From Candidatus Bathyarchaeota archaeon (GTDB lineage Archaea > Thermoproteota > Bathyarchaeia > Bathyarchaeales > Bathycorpusculaceae), in NCBI GenBank assembly GCA_963720565.1, contig CAVRFW010000007.1:1-64000 (forward strand): a stretch of 64,000 nt of DNA, given 5' to 3'. This document shows, piece after piece, positions 35,078 through 61,837 of the stretch. The notes under the pieces are model-generated. The model was given only the letters and a program-made list of their open reading frames with translations, ran no database searches and was not told where the DNA came from. The stretch's first letter is position 1; each line of letters opens with the position of its first letter. The position numbers and the translations under genes are program-made.

Positions 35078-35587
35078 TTAGGAAGTTTCGTAGCCTGCTG
35101 CCTTAAGCTCCTTGAGTATTTCCGCTCTAATCTCATCCAATGAATCTTTAAAACTCAGGTAAACGATGCCCTGCATATCCGAAGGTTGTTCAACGGGTTT
35201 CTTGAGCAAACAGGCAATCCTGTTACGACCCAGCTTTCCCACAAAAAACCCGAATTCAAGAATCACGTTCTGTCTGGGGCGGGGATAGGCGGTTTTCAAA
35301 AACTTTCTAAGCCTCTGAGGCCTCGACCAAATGCTACCCATTTCAACAAAACCGCCTAAGTCGTCAGGAGTTAGAATGACAAATACGAAACCGACATCCG
35401 AGTAAGCCTCAAGCTTCTCGATCACCGTCTTGCCTCCGCTTGGCTGTTCGCTGAGAACGACAGGTGTTAGACCAAAATCAACAAGCATAGTCTTGAGCTC
35501 ATTTAACGGCTTCAGGTCTTTTCCGTGAGCAATAAAAATCTCTTTCTTCAGAGCTATCGACTTTTTTGGGTCGGTTTCACTTTGCAT
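35078..35587 (-). CDS. Stand-alone TIR-like nucleotide-binding protein (Cap12/Pycsar-type TIR)
   Basis: IFIAHGKD, TVIEKLE, FVILTPDD, RPRQNVILEFGFFVGKLGR, PSDMQGIVY. Confidence 0.88.
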   Translation of the reverse strand: MQSETDPKKSIALKKEIFIAHGKDLKPLNELKTMLVDFGLTPVVLSEQPSGGKTVIEKLEAYSDVGFVFVILTPDDLGGFVEMGSIWSRPQRLRKFLKTAYPRPRQNVILEFGFFVGKLGRNRIACLLKKPVEQPSDMQGIVYLSFKDSLDEIRAEILKELKAAGYETS

Positions 35588-35761: not shown

Positions 35762-35776
35762 GGAAAAGAAAAAAAT
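35762..35776 (-). terminator. Oligo-T archaeal terminator after the micropeptide
   Basis: Minus-strand T-rich run (two T tracts separated by one C). Confidence 0.5.
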
Positions 35777-35805
35777 GGAGAAGCAAATGTACTTGCGCCG
35801 AGGTT

Positions 35806-35856
35806 TTACGCTTTCTTTGCCGGAGCCTTCTTCTTTGCTGCTTTCTTCTTAGCCAC
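35806..35856 (-). CDS. 16-aa Lys/Ala/Pro micropeptide MAKKKAAKKKAPAKKA, histone-H1-like
   Basis: GTG start, GAGG RBS about 8 nt upstream, BRE/TATA agcaaaTTTTATATA about 40 nt upstream, oligo-T terminator downstream. Confidence 0.7.
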   Translation of the reverse strand: MAKKKAAKKKAPAKKA

Positions 35857-36116
35857 TTGTATAGCCTCGGGATTTTATGTATGATAATAATTTGTATATA
35901 AAATTTGCTAAAGCCTGGCGTTTCATATTGTGCCTCTTTAATCGAAATCTAAAGGGCTAAACCATGAAATCTCTAAAAGAGTCTGTTTTTCGATTTTTTG
36001 CCTTGGAAAAACCATTCAGAAGTTGTAGAGGCAGAAATTGTTAATTGTGTAGGCGGAATGTAAAATACAAAGGTTAATATTGCCTTAAAAAGAAAAAGAG
36101 GTGTGGAGAAGTCAAT

Positions 36117-36338
36117 ATGGTCGAATCAGAAATTGCTGTAGCAACCATGCACAGATTATGCAAAAAAGCTGGTGCTGAAAGAGTGAGCGAAGCAGCAGCA
36201 AAGGAACTTGCAAAGGCACTTGAAGAAATTGGCGTAAAGATTGCTAGAGAAGCACTTGATTATGCTATGCATGCCGGAAGAAAAACCATCAAAACGGAAG
36301 ATATCGAGATCGCCACTAGAAAAGTCATGGAAAAATAG
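36117..36338 (+). CDS. Archaeal histone (HMf-like, no N-terminal tail)
   Basis: RLCKKAGAERVS..AA..HAGRKTIKTEDI histone-fold signature. Confidence 0.95.
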   Translation: MVESEIAVATMHRLCKKAGAERVSEAAAKELAKALEEIGVKIAREALDYAMHAGRKTIKTEDIEIATRKVMEK

Positions 36339-36423
36339 TTGTCAAATAATTCAATCTCGTTCTTCGACTATTTCTACAGAGAACCATTCTAGCCAAGTGA
36401 TGTGATAAAAAGGTCTGCGCGGG

Positions 36424-36455
36424 TGGCTTGGGTTTGCTGGTTTACCTCAAGAAAC
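36424..36455 (+). repeat. Orphan copy of the surface-protein anchor sequence (GLGLLVYLKK)
   Basis: 31 of 32 nt identical to 56604-56635, in an intergenic position. Confidence 0.85.
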
Positions 36456-36609
36456 CCCAGAGGGATGGGAGTCTAGGAAGAAAACAGCGTTAACACTATT
36501 AATCATAGCGTGCATTAGATGTTGAAGTTGAAATGACTAAAGCTGTTCGGATGCTTTTGGGTTTATCATTAATTATGGCACGTGCGCCATCACGAGAGGG
36601 AACGTCAAA

Positions 36610-54380: not shown

Positions 54381-55876
54381 ATGAGCAAAACTGCAGGGTT
54401 GATGTTTGTTCTTGTCCTCCTCGTACCGCTATGCGTTTTCCCTATTCAACCAGCCAGAGCAGAATCAGGAACAATAATTGTCACCAACGTTAACCAGCTA
54501 GCAAACGCTGTTTATGGTGCGACTGATGGAACCACGATAATCGTGAAAAACGGAACCTACGAGTACCAAGAAAGCCAAACACTAGTTATAAGCAGGTCTA
54601 TCTCGCTCGTGGGTGAAGACCCCGATAGCACAATTCTAAACCTGTATCCCCATCGGATAGATCCGCCTTATCCTTACTCTACGCCTTACTATGAAAATGC
54701 AATCGAGGTTCAAGCCAGCGATGTCTTACTATCAGGTTTTACAATAAATAGCGTCGGTGGCTCCCTCTCGGCAAGTGGAAGCAGAGTCCAAATAACGGGC
54801 AATATGATAAATACGTATGTGGTTGCAGAGGGTCGTTACCAGAATATTTCCTTGAATGTTCTAACTGAAGGAATTCAAAATTATGGAACCTACAACAACA
54901 TCGAAAGAAACACAATCATAGGGCATGGCATTTGGGCAGCTGGCGACTTCAGCATAATCAATGGAAACAACATCACGGACTGTAATACTGAATCCGAGGG
55001 TTATGGAATAATGCTGCAGTGGAGTGGAAACACTGTTTTCGGCAATTTCATAGAGAACTGTAATCACGGTGTGAGTGTTTTGGGGACGAGTAGCTTGAAC
55101 AACATCTATTCAAACATGGTTGTCAACAACGTTGGAGGGCTTGAACTTTTTGGTGAAGGAAGCAACAACGCTTTCCATGACAACTACGTAGCCGACAACA
55201 CAATATGGAGTCCTGCTGAGTCACACATACTTGAGGACTGCAGGAGAAAACAACACAGTCTACCATAACAACTTTGTTAATAATGCTGAACAAATTAACA
55301 GTCGTTCTACCTATTACGGTAACTATGGTTCTGAAGCAGCAATCTATCCAATTGGAGACTATGATAATGGCAAGGAAGGTAATTACTGGAGTGACTACAC
55401 TGGAAAAGATGCTGACGGCAACGGAATAGGCGACACTCGCTATTTTAAAGACCTATACCCGCTTATGTACCCGTGGGGTGCCCCGCTTATTTCTATTTTA
55501 GGCTTGGAGAATGCGACATACTCTGGAAATGTTTCTCTGAACTTCAGGGTTAACAAGCCGACTTCTTGGATGGGTTATAGCCTTGACGGATTTTACAATG
55601 TAACCATTGATGGAAACTTGACTCTCACGGGCTTATCAAGCGGTTTGCACAGCATAACTGTATACGCAAAGGACATGTTTGAAAACGCTGGAACTTCAGA
55701 AACAATTTTCTTCACTACAGCGGAAAAACCAGAACCTGAGCAAGATTCTTTCCCAACAACACTACTCATCGGATCCATAATTGCCGTAGTGGCTGTTGTC
55801 GGAGTGGGGTTGCTGGTGTTGTCGGAGTGGGTTGCTGGTTTACCTCAAGAAACGCCGGGGGATTAGGAATCCATGA
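54381..55876 (+). CDS. Secreted NosD/right-handed beta-helix protein with Ig-like domain and C-terminal anchor (frameshifted)
   Basis: Signal peptide, PbH1 repeats, GNYWSDY..DGNGIGD, SFPT-TM-LLVYLKKR. Confidence 0.88.
55794..55838 (+). repeat. Tandem 23/22-nt duplication inside the anchor-coding sequence
   Basis: TGTTGTCGGAGTGGG(G)TTGCTGG occurs twice in tandem. Confidence 0.9.
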
Positions 55877-56646
55877 GTGGCAAAGCGTTAGTATTGGCAC
55901 TGATATTCGTCTTCTCTGTTTCATTGATCGTTAGCGTGCATAATATTCAAGTTGCTACCGCTAATTTCTTTCCGGGTAATGCCCTGCTGATCTCTTCTCC
56001 AACTTCTGGAATGGTTTACGCAAACACTTCTATTCCACTTATTTTAGTGGCTAATGTTGCTAATCCTACCCCTGAGATTGTGAGCCTTGCTTACAGTCTT
56101 GACGAAAACCCAAATGTAACTCTGACCAATTTGAACAAGACACTTCGCCCCCCAGGTCACATTGACGGTTCCCAATTCTTTGCAGAACTAGTTTTGGAGA
56201 ATCTGTCTGAAGGCAACCACACGCTCAAAGCTTATTCGCAGGATGATTCTGGCGTGCAGATGTCAGCGTCAGTGGAGTTTATGATTGATACAAACTACCA
56301 GACGCCACTTTTGGTTCTGTCCCCCCAAAACATTACCTACTACACAACTGAAGTTCCTCTGACTTTTGTTTGCAGTGAGGAATTCACGTTTGTGTCTCCT
56401 GATTACGTGCTAGACGGTATAGGCATGGGACCTATTTCCGGGAATTTGACTTTGACTGGATTGTCCCTTGGTAAACATGAAATAACAGTTATCGTTTGGA
56501 CTGTGAGGGGAGTTTTTTCTCAAACAGTCTACTTCAGCGTTTCGGAGCCAGAGCCTTTCCCAACCCCGCTGGTCATAAGCTTCGTAATCGCATTGATTGC
56601 TGTTGGCTTGGGTTTGCTGGTTTACTTCAAGAAACGCAAGCGTTAA
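55873..56646 (+). CDS. Secreted Ig-like (two-domain) surface protein with EPFPT...LLVYFKKR anchor
   Basis: Signal peptide, ISSP..YSLD..LSEGNHTL repeats, EPEPFPT, TM, basic tail. Confidence 0.85.
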   Translation: MSGKALVLALIFVFSVSLIVSVHNIQVATANFFPGNALLISSPTSGMVYANTSIPLILVANVANPTPEIVSLAYSLDENPNVTLTNLNKTLRPPGHIDGSQFFAELVLENLSEGNHTLKAYSQDDSGVQMSASVEFMIDTNYQTPLLVLSPQNITYYTTEVPLTFVCSEEFTFVSPDYVLDGIGMGPISGNLTLTGLSLGKHEITVIVWTVRGVFSQTVYFSVSEPEPFPTPLVISFVIALIAVGLGLLVYFKKRKR

Positions 56647-56722
56647 GCAGAATTGTTGAGTCAATAAAGTTTTACAAAAACGATTTTATCACGCCGTCAC
56701 CCCGATGTAACTGGGAACAGAC

Positions 56723-56833
56723 ATGAACAAGAATGCGGGAGTGTTAATCGTTCCGGTTCTCCTAACTTCGCCTTTCTATGCGCAGCCTAATGCAGCTTTT
56801 GCTGCCTCTGGAGGTGAAGAACGCAATGAGTAA
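56723..56833 (+). pseudogene. Signal-peptide-only remnant of a NosD-type gene with its promoter
   Basis: MNKNAGVLIVPVLL resembles MSKTAGLMFVLVLL (54381); upstream TTTACAAAAAC...GGAACAGA is shared. Confidence 0.6.
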
Positions 56834-57536
56834 ACTCAAAGAGATTGCACTATTCATCGTCATAACTGTAATAATTGCTGTACCCCTCTACTTCCTTACC
56901 CTCACTGGCTACAGCTACGGTACTACTGACAAGTGGATCTTGATTGCGTTGAACGTGGTTTTCCTTGCCCTCTTTCTCCTGTTTCTACCCTTCAAGAAGA
57001 AGGTGGCGCGTCTGCCCAACAGCGTCTATCTCGCCTTCATACTAGCTCTCTACGTGGAGATGTATGGCATCCCACTGACAATGTTTCTGTTCGCAGGCTT
57101 CTTCGGACAAAACAACATATTCTCGCTCGAGTTCCTCCTCGCAGGCGTGGTAGGTCAAGAAACGTTCTACCGCGTTTTCAACACCTACATCTTTCCCCTG
57201 TCCAAAATCATTATGGGCATAGGCATACTGCTGATCATTTACGGTTGGAGGGCAATCTACAAGGGTAGAAAAGAAGGCAAGCTTGTGACCACAGGCCTCT
57301 ATGGCGTCATCCGCAACCCGCAATACGTAGGCTTCCTGTTGATCACTCTGGGGTTAAATGTGATGTGGCTGACCATAATCACGCTCATACTCTGGCCTAT
57401 ACTGGCAGTGCTTTACTGGCAGCTCTCAAAAAGAGAAGACAAAGACATGGAGAAACAGTTTGGGCAAGAATTCGTAGATTACAAGAATAGGGTTCCAGGC
57501 TTTTTCCCACGCTTGCGGAAGCGTTCTGCCTCTTAG
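56826..57536 (+). CDS. Isoprenylcysteine carboxyl methyltransferase (PEMT/ICMT) family membrane protein
   Basis: LYVEMYGIPLT, LVTTGLYGVIRNPQYVG, REDKDMEKQFG..Y..RVPGFFP. Confidence 0.88.
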   Translation: MSKLKEIALFIVITVIIAVPLYFLTLTGYSYGTTDKWILIALNVVFLALFLLFLPFKKKVARLPNSVYLAFILALYVEMYGIPLTMFLFAGFFGQNNIFSLEFLLAGVVGQETFYRVFNTYIFPLSKIIMGIGILLIIYGWRAIYKGRKEGKLVTTGLYGVIRNPQYVGFLLITLGLNVMWLTIITLILWPILAVLYWQLSKREDKDMEKQFGQEFVDYKNRVPGFFPRLRKRSAS

Positions 57537-57644
57537 GAGAGAAGAGATGCGCTATCTTGCATTTCAATCTCTCCCGGGAAAAACCGCTGGATTATGGAAA
57601 CCCCCAGAAATAAGCATGGCGACAAAAGTGGATGGAGACTAGGC

Positions 57645-59831
57645 ATGAAAGTAGTACACGAAATAATGTTAACATTGTTGCTGACCAGCGTGTTAACATT
57701 ACCTTTCTCCGTTGAACTCGTTCGATCCGAAGCATTAACCATTGTCATTATGGCTGATGGGACAATTGCCCCTTCAACAGCACCCTTTCTTCGGGATGGA
57801 AACCGTTACGCGTTTACCGGCAACGTTTTTGGCGAAATTGTGGTGGAGAAAAGCAACGTAACAGTGGATGGAAACGGGTATACTCTTCAGGGTTCAGGAA
57901 GCGGAAGTGGGATCAAACTGGCAGGAGTAAATGGCGTCACGATACAGAACACAAATATCCAAAGCTTCACATCCGGCCTCTGGTTTGACGGTTCTTCTGG
58001 AAACACAGTCTTTTCAAACACAATAGCAAACTGCAGCTATGATGGAATTCGTCTTGACGGATCTTCTGGCAATACCATCTCCAGCAACACAATTAAAGAC
58101 AACTATCAGAGCATCCGCCTTCATAGCTCTCCAGACAACAACATCTACAGGAATGTTATAACAAACAGCTACCACGCCGTCTTTTTGCACAGTTCCTCTG
58201 ACAACACCATCTCCGAGAACACGATAACAAACATTTACCTTAGAGGCTTCGAACTCTACAGTTCTTCAGACTTCAACACTATATCCAAAAACAACTTGAC
58301 AAACAGCTTCAGAAGCATATGGCTTTCTGTTTCTTTCAATAACACTTTTTTTGGTAACACAATAACAGGAAACAACTACGAGGGTTTCTCCTTCTACGGT
58401 GCATCCAACAACACCATTTCCGGAAACACCATAACAAACAGCAACTATGACGGCATTTCCCTCTACGGTTCTTCGGAATCTAACACAATAATCCAGAACA
58501 CCTTCAGGGACAATTATCACGGAATCAACTTGCATGATCACTCAAGATTCAACGTGATTTCCGAAAACACGATAACGAACAGCAACCGCGGCATCCACCT
58601 TCATGGATCTTCACAACTCAACACCATCAATGGAAATACCATAACAAACAATTACGAGGGCATTTACCTCGACAGTTCTACAGAGCTTAACACAGTTTCC
58701 CAAAACATTATAACCGACAGTAACCGCGGCATATACCTAGATGGTTCCTCCAAAAATAGTATTTCCAATAACACCTTAACAAGCAACACCGAAGGAATCT
58801 CATTGTATGGCTCTTCTGAATTAAACGCCATCTCTGGAAACATAATAACAAAGAACGACTATGACGGCATCCACATCTACGATTCCCGATACAACACAGT
58901 CTCTGAAAACATCCTGACTGAAAACTATAATGGCATCTATCTAGATGGTTCCTCCAACAACACTGTTTCCGCAAATTCTATAGAAAATAATGGCAATGAT
59001 GGCATATGCCTAGATGATTATTCTGACTCCAACATTGTATCTGGAAACCTATTGAGAAACAATGGTTACGACGGCATCTATATCTATGGTTACTCAAAAT
59101 TCAATTTCATCTCAGCTAACACGATAAGGGACAATGGCTACGACGGCGTCTTCCTTTATTGTTCTGACAACAACACAATCTCCCAGAGCGTGATAGCGAA
59201 CAACTTCAGAGGGATCTTTTTCTGGAATTCTTCAGGAAACATCATCTCTGGAAACGCAATAGCAGACAACCGCTATGACGGCATGTGCCTCCACGGCGCT
59301 TATAACAAAATCTTCGGAAATAACATAACAGACAGCAATTACGACGGCATTGGCCTTCACGGTGCATTCAACGTAATATTCGGAAACAACATATCGGGCA
59401 GCGACTATGACGGCATCCACATCTATGATTCAGTTTACAACACGGTTTTCCATAACAACCTCGTCAACAATACACTTTCTGCTCGCTTATCAGACAGCAC
59501 CAGTAGTTTGGACGGAGGCTATCCTTCAGGCGGTAATTATTGGAGCGACTACACAGGAATCGATGAGTATTCTGGCGCTAATCAAGATAAGCCGGGTAGC
59601 GATGGCATAGGCGACACCCCATATGTTATCGATGAAAACAACCAAGACAATTACCCGCTAATGGCGCCATTTGCAGGCGATAACGACGACATAGTGTTGC
59701 CCACTGAAGAAGTGTTTCCGTTAGCGCAGGTTGTTGTTGCTTCTCTAATTTTTGCTGCTGCTGGTGTGGTTCTGCTGGTTTATTTCCAGAAACGCCAGAA
59801 GGACAAGAATTTATGCAGAACAAGGCAATAG
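57645..59831 (+). CDS. Large NosD/PbH1 beta-helix surface protein with C-terminal anchor
   Basis: Many GIxLxxSSxNTISxNTI repeats, GGNYWSDY, DGIGDTPY, DNYPLM, VFP-TM-LLVYFQKR. Confidence 0.92.
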   Translation: MKVVHEIMLTLLLTSVLTLPFSVELVRSEALTIVIMADGTIAPSTAPFLRDGNRYAFTGNVFGEIVVEKSNVTVDGNGYTLQGSGSGSGIKLAGVNGVTIQNTNIQSFTSGLWFDGSSGNTVFSNTIANCSYDGIRLDGSSGNTISSNTIKDNYQSIRLHSSPDNNIYRNVITNSYHAVFLHSSSDNTISENTITNIYLRGFELYSSSDFNTISKNNLTNSFRSIWLSVSFNNTFFGNTITGNNYEGFSFYGASNNTISGNTITNSNYDGISLYGSSESNTIIQNTFRDNYHGINLHDHSRFNVISENTITNSNRGIHLHGSSQLNTINGNTITNNYEGIYLDSSTELNTVSQNIITDSNRGIYLDGSSKNSISNNTLTSNTEGISLYGSSELNAISGNIITKNDYDGIHIYDSRYNTVSENILTENYNGIYLDGSSNNTVSANSIENNGNDGICLDDYSDSNIVSGNLLRNNGYDGIYIYGYSKFNFISANTIRDNGYDGVFLYCSDNNTISQSVIANNFRGIFFWNSSGNIISGNAIADNRYDGMCLHGAYNKIFGNNITDSNYDGIGLHGAFNVIFGNNISGSDYDGIHIYDSVYNTVFHNNLVNNTLSARLSDSTSSLDGGYPSGGNYWSDYTGIDEYSGANQDKPGSDGIGDTPYVIDENNQDNYPLMAPFAGDNDDIVLPTEEVFPLAQVVVASLIFAAAGVVLLVYFQKRQKDKNLCRTRQ

Positions 59832-60889
59832 CACTAACACTTATCTTGTCTCTCTTTTGCCTACCGCCTGTTAGAGCTTTTGAGGTAACGGCCACTTTGA
59901 CTTTGGAGAATCCAGGCGGTTATTACGGCGTGGCTTATGATTCTGGCAAAGGAGAAGTCTTTTTGACCAATGTGGATTTCGATTTGGTCTACGTAATTTC
60001 AGACAGTAACAATGCAGTAGTCGCAAGTATACCCGTGGGGAGACAGCCTGTGGGAATAGCTTATGATTCTGCGAAGGGTGAACTATTCGTTGCCAATTAT
60101 GGTTCCAATTCGGTTTCGGTTATTTCGGACAGTAACAATACCGTAATTGCAGACATACCCTGTGGGACCGCGCCCTTTGCCGTGGCTTATGATTCCGGTA
60201 AGGGCGAAATCTTCGTGTCCAACTATAATTCTAGTTCTGTCTCGGTGATATCGGATAGCACCTATACCGTAGTCGCAAACATAAGCGTGGGAATTCAACC
60301 CTGTGCTCTAGCCTATGATTCGGGTAAAGGAGAGATATTTGTGGGGCATGCTGGCTGCAATCAGGTTTTGGTGATATCGGACACCACTTACGCCGTTGTC
60401 GCAAACATAACTGTGCAAGATCCCTTGAGTTTGGTTTATGATTCCGGTAAAGGAGAAGTCTTTGTGGCTAACTATAATTCAAGTTCGGTCTCAATTATAT
60501 CAGACGCTACAAACCAGATTGTTGCAACCGTAAATGTGGGAGCAAATCCCGTAGGTATCGCGTATGATTCGGGTAATGGCCAAGTCTATGTGGCAAATTA
60601 CAATTCGAGCTCGGTCTCAGTGATATCCGACAGTAACAATACTGTAATTGCAAATGTAGCTCTGGAAAGCCATCCGCAGGGTATAGGTTTTGATTCTGGT
60701 AAGGGAGAGATATTTGTGACTTATTCTGAAAGCAACAGGATTTCGGTGATATCAATTTCCTCTATCCCACTGCCCGGTCCATCCGTTCCGGAGTATCCAA
60801 TATGGACGATTCTGCCTTTGACTGCCATATTACTAGGGGTCTTGTGTGCTGGCTTGCTGGTTTACGTCAAGAAACGCCACAAGCTCTGA
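59813..60889 (+). CDS. YncE/YVTN beta-propeller surface protein
   Basis: Seven (A)YDSGKGE(I/V)FVxN..VSVISD repeats; VPEYP-TM-LLVYVKKR. Confidence 0.92.
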   Translation: MQNKAIALTLILSLFCLPPVRAFEVTATLTLENPGGYYGVAYDSGKGEVFLTNVDFDLVYVISDSNNAVVASIPVGRQPVGIAYDSAKGELFVANYGSNSVSVISDSNNTVIADIPCGTAPFAVAYDSGKGEIFVSNYNSSSVSVISDSTYTVVANISVGIQPCALAYDSGKGEIFVGHAGCNQVLVISDTTYAVVANITVQDPLSLVYDSGKGEVFVANYNSSSVSIISDATNQIVATVNVGANPVGIAYDSGNGQVYVANYNSSSVSVISDSNNTVIANVALESHPQGIGFDSGKGEIFVTYSESNRISVISISSIPLPGPSVPEYPIWTILPLTAILLGVLCAGLLVYVKKRHKL

Positions 60890-60970
60890 TTGTATGCTGA
60901 CTGCGTTCCTGTGGCGGAACAATGTGTTCCTTGAGTAGAACTATATAGGATCTTTACCAGTGTATTGGAG

Positions 60971-61837
60971 ATGATTGCAGTGCGAAAGACAACAAAGTTT
61001 CTAAGCTTCATTATCTTAGGATTACTTGCTGCTTCATTGCTTGATTTTCAATCTGTAAAAGCACAATATGCTGATGATGGAAGACCATTCCCCCTTGCTT
61101 CACCAATTGAAATAACTTCACCATCTAACAGCACATATGATTCAGGGTTATTGATGCTCGATATCAGTTTCAAATTGATGCTCAATGTTGAAAAGACAAA
61201 CATAACAGTGCTTTACAGCCTGGATGGAAAAGAAAACACCACTGTCGCAGTATCAACAAAACTCTTTCCAGTAGAAACAACAATAACTTATGCAAACGGC
61301 TCAACACAAACTGGCATTTCATCACTATTCTCTTATTACATCATCAATGCAAGCGTGGCTTTGCCAGAACTCCCTGAAGGTTTTCACAGCATATCAGTCT
61401 ATGGAAGATATGAGCATGTTGGCGGCTCCAATTACAATGTGCATGATAGTAGCAGGGTTTGCTTTACAATCAATAATGGTAAGGCTCCAGTCATATCAAG
61501 TCTAAGTCTTGAAAACATAACTTACAGTCAAGATAATTTGAACTTGAATTTTACGGTTGACGAGTCAACTTCATGGATGGGTTATTGTTTGGATGAACAG
61601 GCTAACGTTACTTTGACTGGGAATTTCACGCTCACACAGCTGCCCTATGGCTCACACACAATAACTATTTACGCAAATGACACGGTTGGAAACATGGGCT
61701 CCTCTGCAACGATCAACTTCAGCATAGCACAACCGTTCCCAACTGCACTTGCCCTGTCATCCGCAGGCGTAGTGGCTATTGTCGGTTTGGGTCTTCTGGT
61801 TTACCACAAGAAACGCTACAAGCTCAAGATTACATGA
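60971..61837 (+). CDS. Secreted Ig-like surface protein with QPFPT...LLVYHKKR anchor
   Basis: Signal peptide, ITSPSNSTY, YSLDGK, SWMGYCLD, GSHTITIYAND. Confidence 0.85.
   Translation: MIAVRKTTKFLSFIILGLLAASLLDFQSVKAQYADDGRPFPLASPIEITSPSNSTYDSGLLMLDISFKLMLNVEKTNITVLYSLDGKENTTVAVSTKLFPVETTITYANGSTQTGISSLFSYYIINASVALPELPEGFHSISVYGRYEHVGGSNYNVHDSSRVCFTINNGKAPVISSLSLENITYSQDNLNLNFTVDESTSWMGYCLDEQANVTLTGNFTLTQLPYGSHTITIYANDTVGNMGSSATINFSIAQPFPTALALSSAGVVAIVGLGLLVYHKKRYKLKIT

Follow-up and report, generated by a model that had tools for sequence, protein, structure and literature searches.

The window, by which we mean the whole 64,000-nucleotide stretch that was analysed, carries a very short gene on its minus strand (35806..35856) and, beside it on the plus strand, a histone gene (36117..36338). 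The sequence-only reading had described a 51-nt minus-strand ORF that encodes only lysine, alanine and proline after its start, and this ORF is indeed present, with GTG as the start codon. Its DNA (GTG GCT AAG AAG AAA GCA GCA AAG AAG AAG GCT CCG GCA AAG AAA GCG TAA) comprises 16 codons plus the stop, and the product, (M)AKKKAAKKKAPAKKA, consists after the start of 8 K, 6 A and 1 P (n=15) and has a net charge of +8. The signals that had been attributed to the gene (GAGG, BRE/TATA and a T-tract) could all be located, between 35764 and 35909 on the minus strand. The BRE/TATA-like element AGCAAATTTTATATA (35895..35909) probably serves as the promoter; GCTTTAGCAAATTTTA has exactly two occurrences in the genome, each before a peptide gene. 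(A sigma-70 promoter scan is unsuited to archaea.) The Shine-Dalgarno sequence CCGAGG (35865..35870), with its GAGG 8 nt before the GTG, is kept in 34/34 relatives, 26 of which were reached via the histone. Right after the stop codon lies CCTCGG (35798..35803), which complements the Shine-Dalgarno hexamer and is likewise found in all 34 relatives, and beyond it an oligo-T, terminator-like tract (35764..35775); a T-tract follows every relative that was inspected for it.

As had been claimed, the two genes share a divergent intergenic region, which measures 260 bp from the GTG of the peptide gene to the ATG of the histone gene (35857-36116). Between the two promoters (35910..36068), about 100 bp is 75-84% identical to the spacers of six other long-gap cassettes, as we call the pair of peptide gene and histone gene. 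The histone promoter AAAGGTTAATATTGCC and the Shine-Dalgarno-like GAGGTGTGGAG that goes with it (36069..36108, plus strand) have a layout that accessory and canonical histones share. The proposed co-regulation of the two genes is conjectural: in the window they lie on opposite strands, each with its own promoter, and 4 of the 47 pairs that we found are not head-to-head.

The histone has 73 amino acids and is of the HMfB type. It scores 84.5 bits against NF043032 (cut-off 50), which indicates a histone fold, and by alignment it keeps the residues that match R10, G16, R19, H49, R52 and D59 of HMfB (numbering of PMC6136690). Because the alignment to HMfB is offset by only 3 residues, the protein lacks a tail, in agreement with the earlier description of a tailless HMf-like neighbour. 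The genome encodes two histones, and the one in the window, which is 85% identical to the canonical histone on contig C5, is the second, accessory copy.

Within this 2.09-Mb genome, two ORFs fit a lysine-rich definition (GAGG, 8-40 codons, at least 40% K and at least 80% K/A/P/G), namely the window copy and a paralog on contig C9; there were none in each of 10 local shuffles. With a pattern built on the Shine-Dalgarno sequence and the 3' end, 52 of the family's 332 genomes yielded 60 matches, and after the removal of 4 that were not lysine-rich ORFs, 56 relatives in 50 genomes remained. (A start-anchored pattern, run on the same 332 genomes, gave 26 matches, or 23 peptides of 16-23 residues once 3 long enzyme genes were removed.) The 56 peptides have 16-23 residues, net charges of +6 to +9, and an overall composition of 53% K, 19% A and 12% P, with no R and 0.6% S+T. 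Named Bathyarchaeia records contain near-identical peptides along with an 86%-identical histone, and the window's genome is accordingly assigned to this group.

Selection was analysed on 34 cassette-type copies, 26 found via the histone and 8 via the start pattern. All 34 end in TAA, and they have 16-18 codons, with lengths that differ by whole codons only; 19 start with GTG and 15 with ATG. Across 25 distinct 18-codon relatives, pN/pS was 0.16 (pairwise, uncorrected), which indicates purifying selection on the frame, and changes were concentrated at third positions (variation entropy of 0.9, 4.2 and 8.5 by codon position). At codon 2, all four alanine codons are used. The relatives thus show the synonymous variation that would be sought in conserved K/A/P peptides. 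By these comparisons, the minus-strand ORF at 35806-35856 is a real protein-coding gene, and we infer that it is transcribed and translated. Two of three RNA-library runs gave contig pieces (6 and 4) that span the peptide gene; because these pieces also span the promoter and spacer, DNA carry-over is indistinguishable from transcription. The idea that the ORF arose by chance, or is the leftover end of a longer gene, could draw on an apparently frameshifted paralog in genome G207 and on the window copy's departure from the 18-codon consensus of its relatives. It is extremely unlikely, however, and largely refuted, given the gene's own promoter and Shine-Dalgarno sequence, the purifying selection, the empty shuffles, and a stop codon in the same frame, three codons ahead of the stretch that precedes the GTG.

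A role for the RNA or for the act of translation, with the 3' CCTCGG pairing with the Shine-Dalgarno sequence as a switch or a lysyl-tRNA sensor, would fit the presence of CCGAGG and (C/T)CTCGG in 34/34 copies and the changes that preserve G-U pairs (also at locus L402). But the pairing is predicted (probability >0.5) in only 22/56 peptide genes, with a probability of 0.03 for the window copy; there is no folding signal (z 0.1-0.7) and there were 0 Rfam matches in 3 loci; selection acts at the amino-acid level on alanine and proline codons too; and the gene ends in a terminator of its own, with no gene constantly downstream that it could regulate. We consider such a role very unlikely. A leader-peptide attenuator was rejected because of the gene's own terminator and because no constant or lysine-related gene lies downstream.

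The peptide gene and its cassette with the histone are apparently undescribed so far. Two relatives of 22-27 residues were absent from a collection of 15 billion proteins by exact look-up, and relatives of this length matched no NCBIfam model at E<=1. The searchable full-text literature, which does not take in many subscription papers or supplementary tables of small proteins and histone neighbourhoods, held no description of the peptide gene, and in the portions of PMC11390915 and PMC11894787 covered by term searches, Bathyarchaeia are unmentioned.

The peptide gene turned out to be tightly linked to a histone, and the linkage concerns the accessory histone. We examined 106 histone loci, of which 71 lie beside a TatD-like gene and are canonical, and 35 are other rows (34 distinct); this sample, made up of the top matches to two queries and of 47 picked from the matches listed, these mostly from multi-histone genomes, is not random. 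A peptide gene is present at 26/34 of the non-canonical loci (26/29 of those with enough DNA), in contrast to 0/71 of the TatD-linked loci within about 900 bp. Among the 8 non-canonical loci that lack it, 5 reach a contig edge 47-214 bp upstream and 3 are true misses. A contig-edge case from the window's genus (G004:C8) is 85% identical over 35903-36338 and reaches the TATA box of the peptide gene at the contig end.

Conversely, 47 of the 56 peptide genes are beside a histone, with 43 divergent at 125-764 bp and 4 co-directional; the others are at a ferritin-type locus (3), at contig edges (3), or histone-free (3). A follow-up look added one more histone-linked copy (G114) and two histone-free ones (G191). 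All told, a histone is missing within 1.5-4.8 kb of at least 5 peptide genes of the cassette type (two in G144, one in G159 and two in G191). Most peptide copies are held by one large genus, where 45/120 genomes have them. The other three genomes of the window's genus gave no match to the Shine-Dalgarno and 3'-end pattern, and in G003, which is of this genus and 96% complete, there was one histone match and no cassette match.

The surroundings of the pair vary. Clustering of the outer ORFs gave 37 clusters from 41 proteins for one flank and 41 from 44 for the other, by a rule that takes the largest ORFs outside the pair and so may include spurious ones; and DNA comparison found several shared contexts among the loci, so the number of independent positions is below 47. 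Metabolic, toxin-antitoxin, TIR and core genes all occur among the neighbours. In the window, a stand-alone TIR-domain gene (Pfam CAP12-PCTIR_TIR; 35078-35587, minus strand) lies just downstream of the peptide gene, and another TIR gene flanks the cassette in G163.

In several relatives the pair is bracketed by repeats that resemble the end of a tRNA gene, which argues for mobility. Behind tRNA-Leu of G020, tRNA-end-like direct repeats stand in a row, and the pair takes up a single 628-bp unit of that row. The pair of G158 and that on contig C27 of G115 lie inside an insert of 1.7-2.4 kb, with tRNA-Leu on one side and a DUF1385 gene on the other, and G204 and G116 are similar. The repeats bracket the pair in G020, G158 and G116 and mark the end of the island in G115:C27 and G204. 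A profile of the repeat matched 11/56 cassette loci (7 of which were its seeds), 1/71 canonical loci and 0/26 paralog loci, and it found no att-like repeat at the window's own locus. No integrase turned up among 85 flank proteins, or among the 30 ORFs that were scanned out of 67 in five regions of 18-19 kb. In a tree of 219 nt of the histone gene, the accessory label requires at least 3 changes, and the AU test does not reject one common origin for the pair (p-AU 0.123); the 47 loci are therefore not independent events, and a unit of 500-600 bp could move together without any joint function. From these comparisons, the pair most likely moves between genomic sites, in some relatives via tRNA-anchored mini-islands.

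Rows of tRNA-3'-end-like direct repeats (L046:309-2650 in G020:C4, and L417-L421) hold one small gene module between each pair of repeats, such as a HicAB-like pair, a nitroreductase, or the histone and peptide, with no integrase seen nearby. A repeat in the window at 36421-36460 (plus strand) was rejected as a boundary of the cassette: it is what is left of a membrane anchor, the LGLLVYLKK terminus common to paralogous surface or secreted proteins, whose genes form a long tandem array on C7 at 54381-61837 and onward.

The paralog of the peptide gene, VAKAAKGKKKKAAKKK, lies on the minus strand of contig C9 (G000:C9:341884-341934, where G000 is the window's genome) and has a near-identical promoter layout and the same Shine-Dalgarno layout, without a histone. 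It is flanked by genes for an ECF S-component and for a 2-oxoacid oxidoreductase-like protein. Across relatives this locus is stable: the paralog follows the ECF S-component gene and precedes a ferritin-like, pyrimidine-enzyme or other gene. By hand count, it is present in at least about 40/66 genomes of the large genus, with 150 of 235 matches listed and few of them located. Versions of twelve residues occur in another order of the class. In G207 (contig C2, L401), an apparent one-base frameshift leaves a paralog of 12 residues, by assembly error or decay. On contig C8 of G000, a region on the minus strand (92652-92870) has an ORF that encodes about 66 residues rich in K, A and E (MSFLDKAKKKTEEGAKKVAEKAKK...) and is followed by a T-tract.

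Short lysine-rich ORFs are also found much more widely. A scan of one genome per species, with a pattern that forced lysine richness in the first ten codons and left early stops unforced, gave at least 60 ORFs that end within 35 codons among the 120 matches listed, most of them lysine-rich throughout. They come from records that bear the labels Aenigmatarchaeota, Woesearchaeota, Pacearchaeota, Hadesarchaea, Rokuibacteriota, Planctomycetes, Patescibacteria-type lineages and others, and among the matches listed, none of these 60 lies beside a histone (flanks of 1500 bp for 80 loci and about 300 bp for 40). ORFs that share a peptide-like start run from 10 to >100 residues across taxa, and low-complexity 16-mers carry no usable homology signal across taxa or to tail-only H1-like proteins. 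A pattern run across the phylum matched 3/301 genomes, with one real peptide (G381); this pattern is narrow and misses even G000, so it does not show absence. Viral contigs gave 44 pattern matches, 3 of them of 16-23 residues; the flanks, of up to 3 kb, contained no histone. One of the viral contigs (L300) has a 16-residue ORF, MAKKPAKKKVAPKKKK, with a Shine-Dalgarno sequence and a hairpin terminator and no histone in 3 kb.

At 3/56 peptide loci, a gene for a 53-residue zinc ribbon lies about 250 bp from the peptide gene. The gene order is histone-peptide-ribbon in G174 and G178 and ribbon-peptide, without a histone, in G144. Pfam, NCBIfam and single-sequence searches gave the zinc ribbon no name. 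By fold it is Cren7-like (prob 0.99, TM 0.61, E 0.14), it falls in atlas clusters with 35-37% Cren7 members, and it has a weak profile match (E 0.029). Cren7 homologs with cysteines have been reported in Bathyarchaeota, in the available part of PMC5906684. The three Cren7-like peptide loci may represent one or two events. G000 has three Cren7-like zinc-ribbon genes as well as its two histones, with Cren7/Alba matches on contigs C2, C3 and C12 and on C5, C8 and C9. It also has four matches to a protein that we take to be Alba-like. G226 and G248 have three peptide genes each. One of those in G248 (C7, L410) comes about 1 kb after a Cren7-like gene; the gene 265 bp after it is presumably for a TATA-binding protein.

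Because of the gene neighbourhood, DNA is the likeliest target of the peptide. We narrowly favour the reading that the peptide is a gene-encoded polycation that would coat DNA and that moves with an accessory histone as a cassette for topping up chromatin. The gene would be translated into a disordered polycation of 15 residues, the initial methionine probably being removed, which would bind the DNA backbone without sequence preference and neutralise its charge. In the manner of an H1 tail or a polyamine, it would then bridge or tighten DNA that histones and Cren7 have bound, and the two genes would add chromatin capacity wherever they move. We infer both the DNA binding and the joint action with the histone; a minimal condensing peptide is plausible, helped by the link to the accessory histone and by the 3/56 Cren7-like loci. 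Several observations weigh against this reading: the histone-free paralog at its stable locus, the 60 short ORFs with no histone beside them among the matches listed, the single origin that the tree did not reject, the cassette-type peptide genes that lack a histone, the weaker constraint on the accessory histones, the absence of an att-like repeat at the window's own locus, and the lack of a cassette match in G003. Since the micro-gene is under selection and travels with a spare histone, it is a candidate, open to testing, for a very small helper in the packing of chromatin.

The peptide could instead be a general binder of polyanions (RNA, the ribosome or polyphosphate) that has no particular part in chromatin; its proximity to the histone would then be one old accident, perpetuated by a small mobile unit. 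The histone-free paralog at a stable locus fits this, as do the similar ORFs of 10-35 residues with unrelated neighbours in bacteria and other archaea (among the matches listed) and the single origin of the pair that the tree did not reject. So do other lysine-rich proteins: in the available parts of the sources, AlgP, with its KPAA repeats, acts on polyphosphate granules (PMC9239181), and a TgH1-like protein also associates with ribosomal proteins (PMC9769792). However, the pair has outlasted inversion (4 loci), gaps that range from 125 to 764 bp and the turnover of its flanks; a second type of chromatin gene, the Cren7-like one, also adjoins the peptide gene; and just 1/85 flank proteins is a ribosomal protein (S4), on the histone side. 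We think it rather doubtful that general polyanion binding explains the pair.

The accessory histones are under weaker constraint than the canonical ones, with a mean identity of 81% vs 93% and a pN/pS of 0.21 vs 0.06, and one accessory copy stops early. The position of HMfB H49 has tyrosine in 18/47 accessory copies and is invariant in 67 canonical ones; the window copy has histidine. This residue belongs to the dimer-dimer interface, according to the available text of PMC6136690 and PMC7776873. The mean net charge is +2.4 for accessory and +2.0 for canonical histones, so the accessory ones are not more acidic.

These features bear on a more specific proposal, that the peptide is a true trans-acting tail or linker which docks on the accessory histone or on hypernucleosome ends, perhaps with modified lysines. 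The link is exclusive to the accessory histone (26/34 vs 0/71), and the change of H49 to tyrosine may mean shorter complexes that need a bridge. But the window histone keeps its histidine, the accessory histones are not more acidic, the peptide sequence is free to vary (K/A/P/E/V/G), and no fused form appeared: among 128 proteins (the best 120 of 1746 matches and 8 cluster members), 0/48 longer histone homologs have a peptide-like extension. So while the sequence-only reading was right about a conserved coding micro-gene tightly linked to a histone, its dedicated trans-encoded tail is weakened by the lack of a peptide-like tail in the longer homologs, by the histone-free paralog with the same promoter and Shine-Dalgarno layout at a stable locus, and by the canonical histone never adjoining the peptide gene. 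We judge a dedicated tail or linker to be quite unlikely.

H1 homologs were not found in archaea and most archaeal histones are tailless, with tails on a few that include one from Bathyarchaeota, according to the available text of PMC6136690. The lysine-rich C-terminus of H1 is needed for compaction (PMC8015243, in part), and tail-only H1-like proteins are known from bacteria and protists (available portions of PMC8015243, PMC9769792 and PMC9239181). As far as these sources go, the H1 C-terminal domain and the tail-only proteins of kinetoplastids and of the TgH1-like type from Toxoplasma are alike in being K/A/P-rich, arginine-free and of low complexity, with no globular domain. Taken over the 56 peptides, the composition is K/A/P-rich and basic, like that of the tail of canonical H1. 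The window gene differs in being archaeal, in its length (16-23 residues in the family) and in having no S/TPKK minor-groove motif, and with a whole product of 16 residues there is no winged-helix globular domain. The peptide thus resembles the tail-only H1-like proteins by composition and is not one of them by length or domain.

With AlgP, the H1-like protein of Pseudomonas, it shares KPA/KAPA units and composition, and polyanion binding would be expected (PMC9239181, available part); however, the repeat domain of AlgP has 154 residues and is attached to another domain, while the peptide amounts to one or two units, standing alone beside a histone. Compared with the Methanobacteriales capstones, as described in the portion of PMC7776873 available, the accessory histones are likewise second histones with changes at residue 49 (18/47), but the capstones are old and vertically kept, whereas the accessory histones have a patchy distribution, occupy scattered positions and come with a peptide gene. 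The window histone, with its histidine, lacks the acidic or hydrophobic residue at HMfB position 49 that marks a capstone. The N-terminal tails of archaeal histones from Heimdallarchaeia, Huberarchaea and Bathyarchaeota B23 are likewise short and lysine-rich, and have been proposed to stabilise hypernucleosomes via DNA contacts (PMC6136690, in the text available). Those tails are covalent; the peptide has a separate gene with its own promoter, and is not fused in any of the 48 longer homologs. Genes for nucleoid proteins are also carried on mobile elements, as in the "stealth" genes of the H-NS and HU types. These too are extra chromatin genes that move with foreign DNA; here they would be an archaeal histone and a micropeptide, with no integrase near the loci checked.

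It is possible, if on the doubtful side, that in Bathyarchaeia a mobile chromatin module of two genes supplies a tailless accessory histone with its tail or linker in trans, in the form of a free, lysine-rich peptide of 15 residues. If so, archaeal histone chromatin would have its first H1-like or tail-like component, recruited from overlooked genes for ultra-short lysine-rich peptides across archaea and bacteria, and there would be a living model of the way in which tails might exist ahead of fusion. A synthetic peptide with recombinant histone would be a cheap and direct test of a free tail or linker in archaeal chromatin. Even if the link is passive, lysine-rich genes of 10-35 residues escape gene callers and trypsin-based proteomics, which leaves the catalogue of small basic proteins incomplete.

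Many histone entries with 86-111 residues (for example P0051, P0060 and P0114) show basic N-terminal "tails" such as LNIALKRKR.. and KVKYCFKKKK... We rejected these long entries as fusions to the peptide because their "tails" result from in-frame translation of the conserved promoter and 5' UTR (32/48 by a simple motif). The reported histone tails of Bathyarchaeia, including the published B23 tail, are worth checking for mis-called starts.
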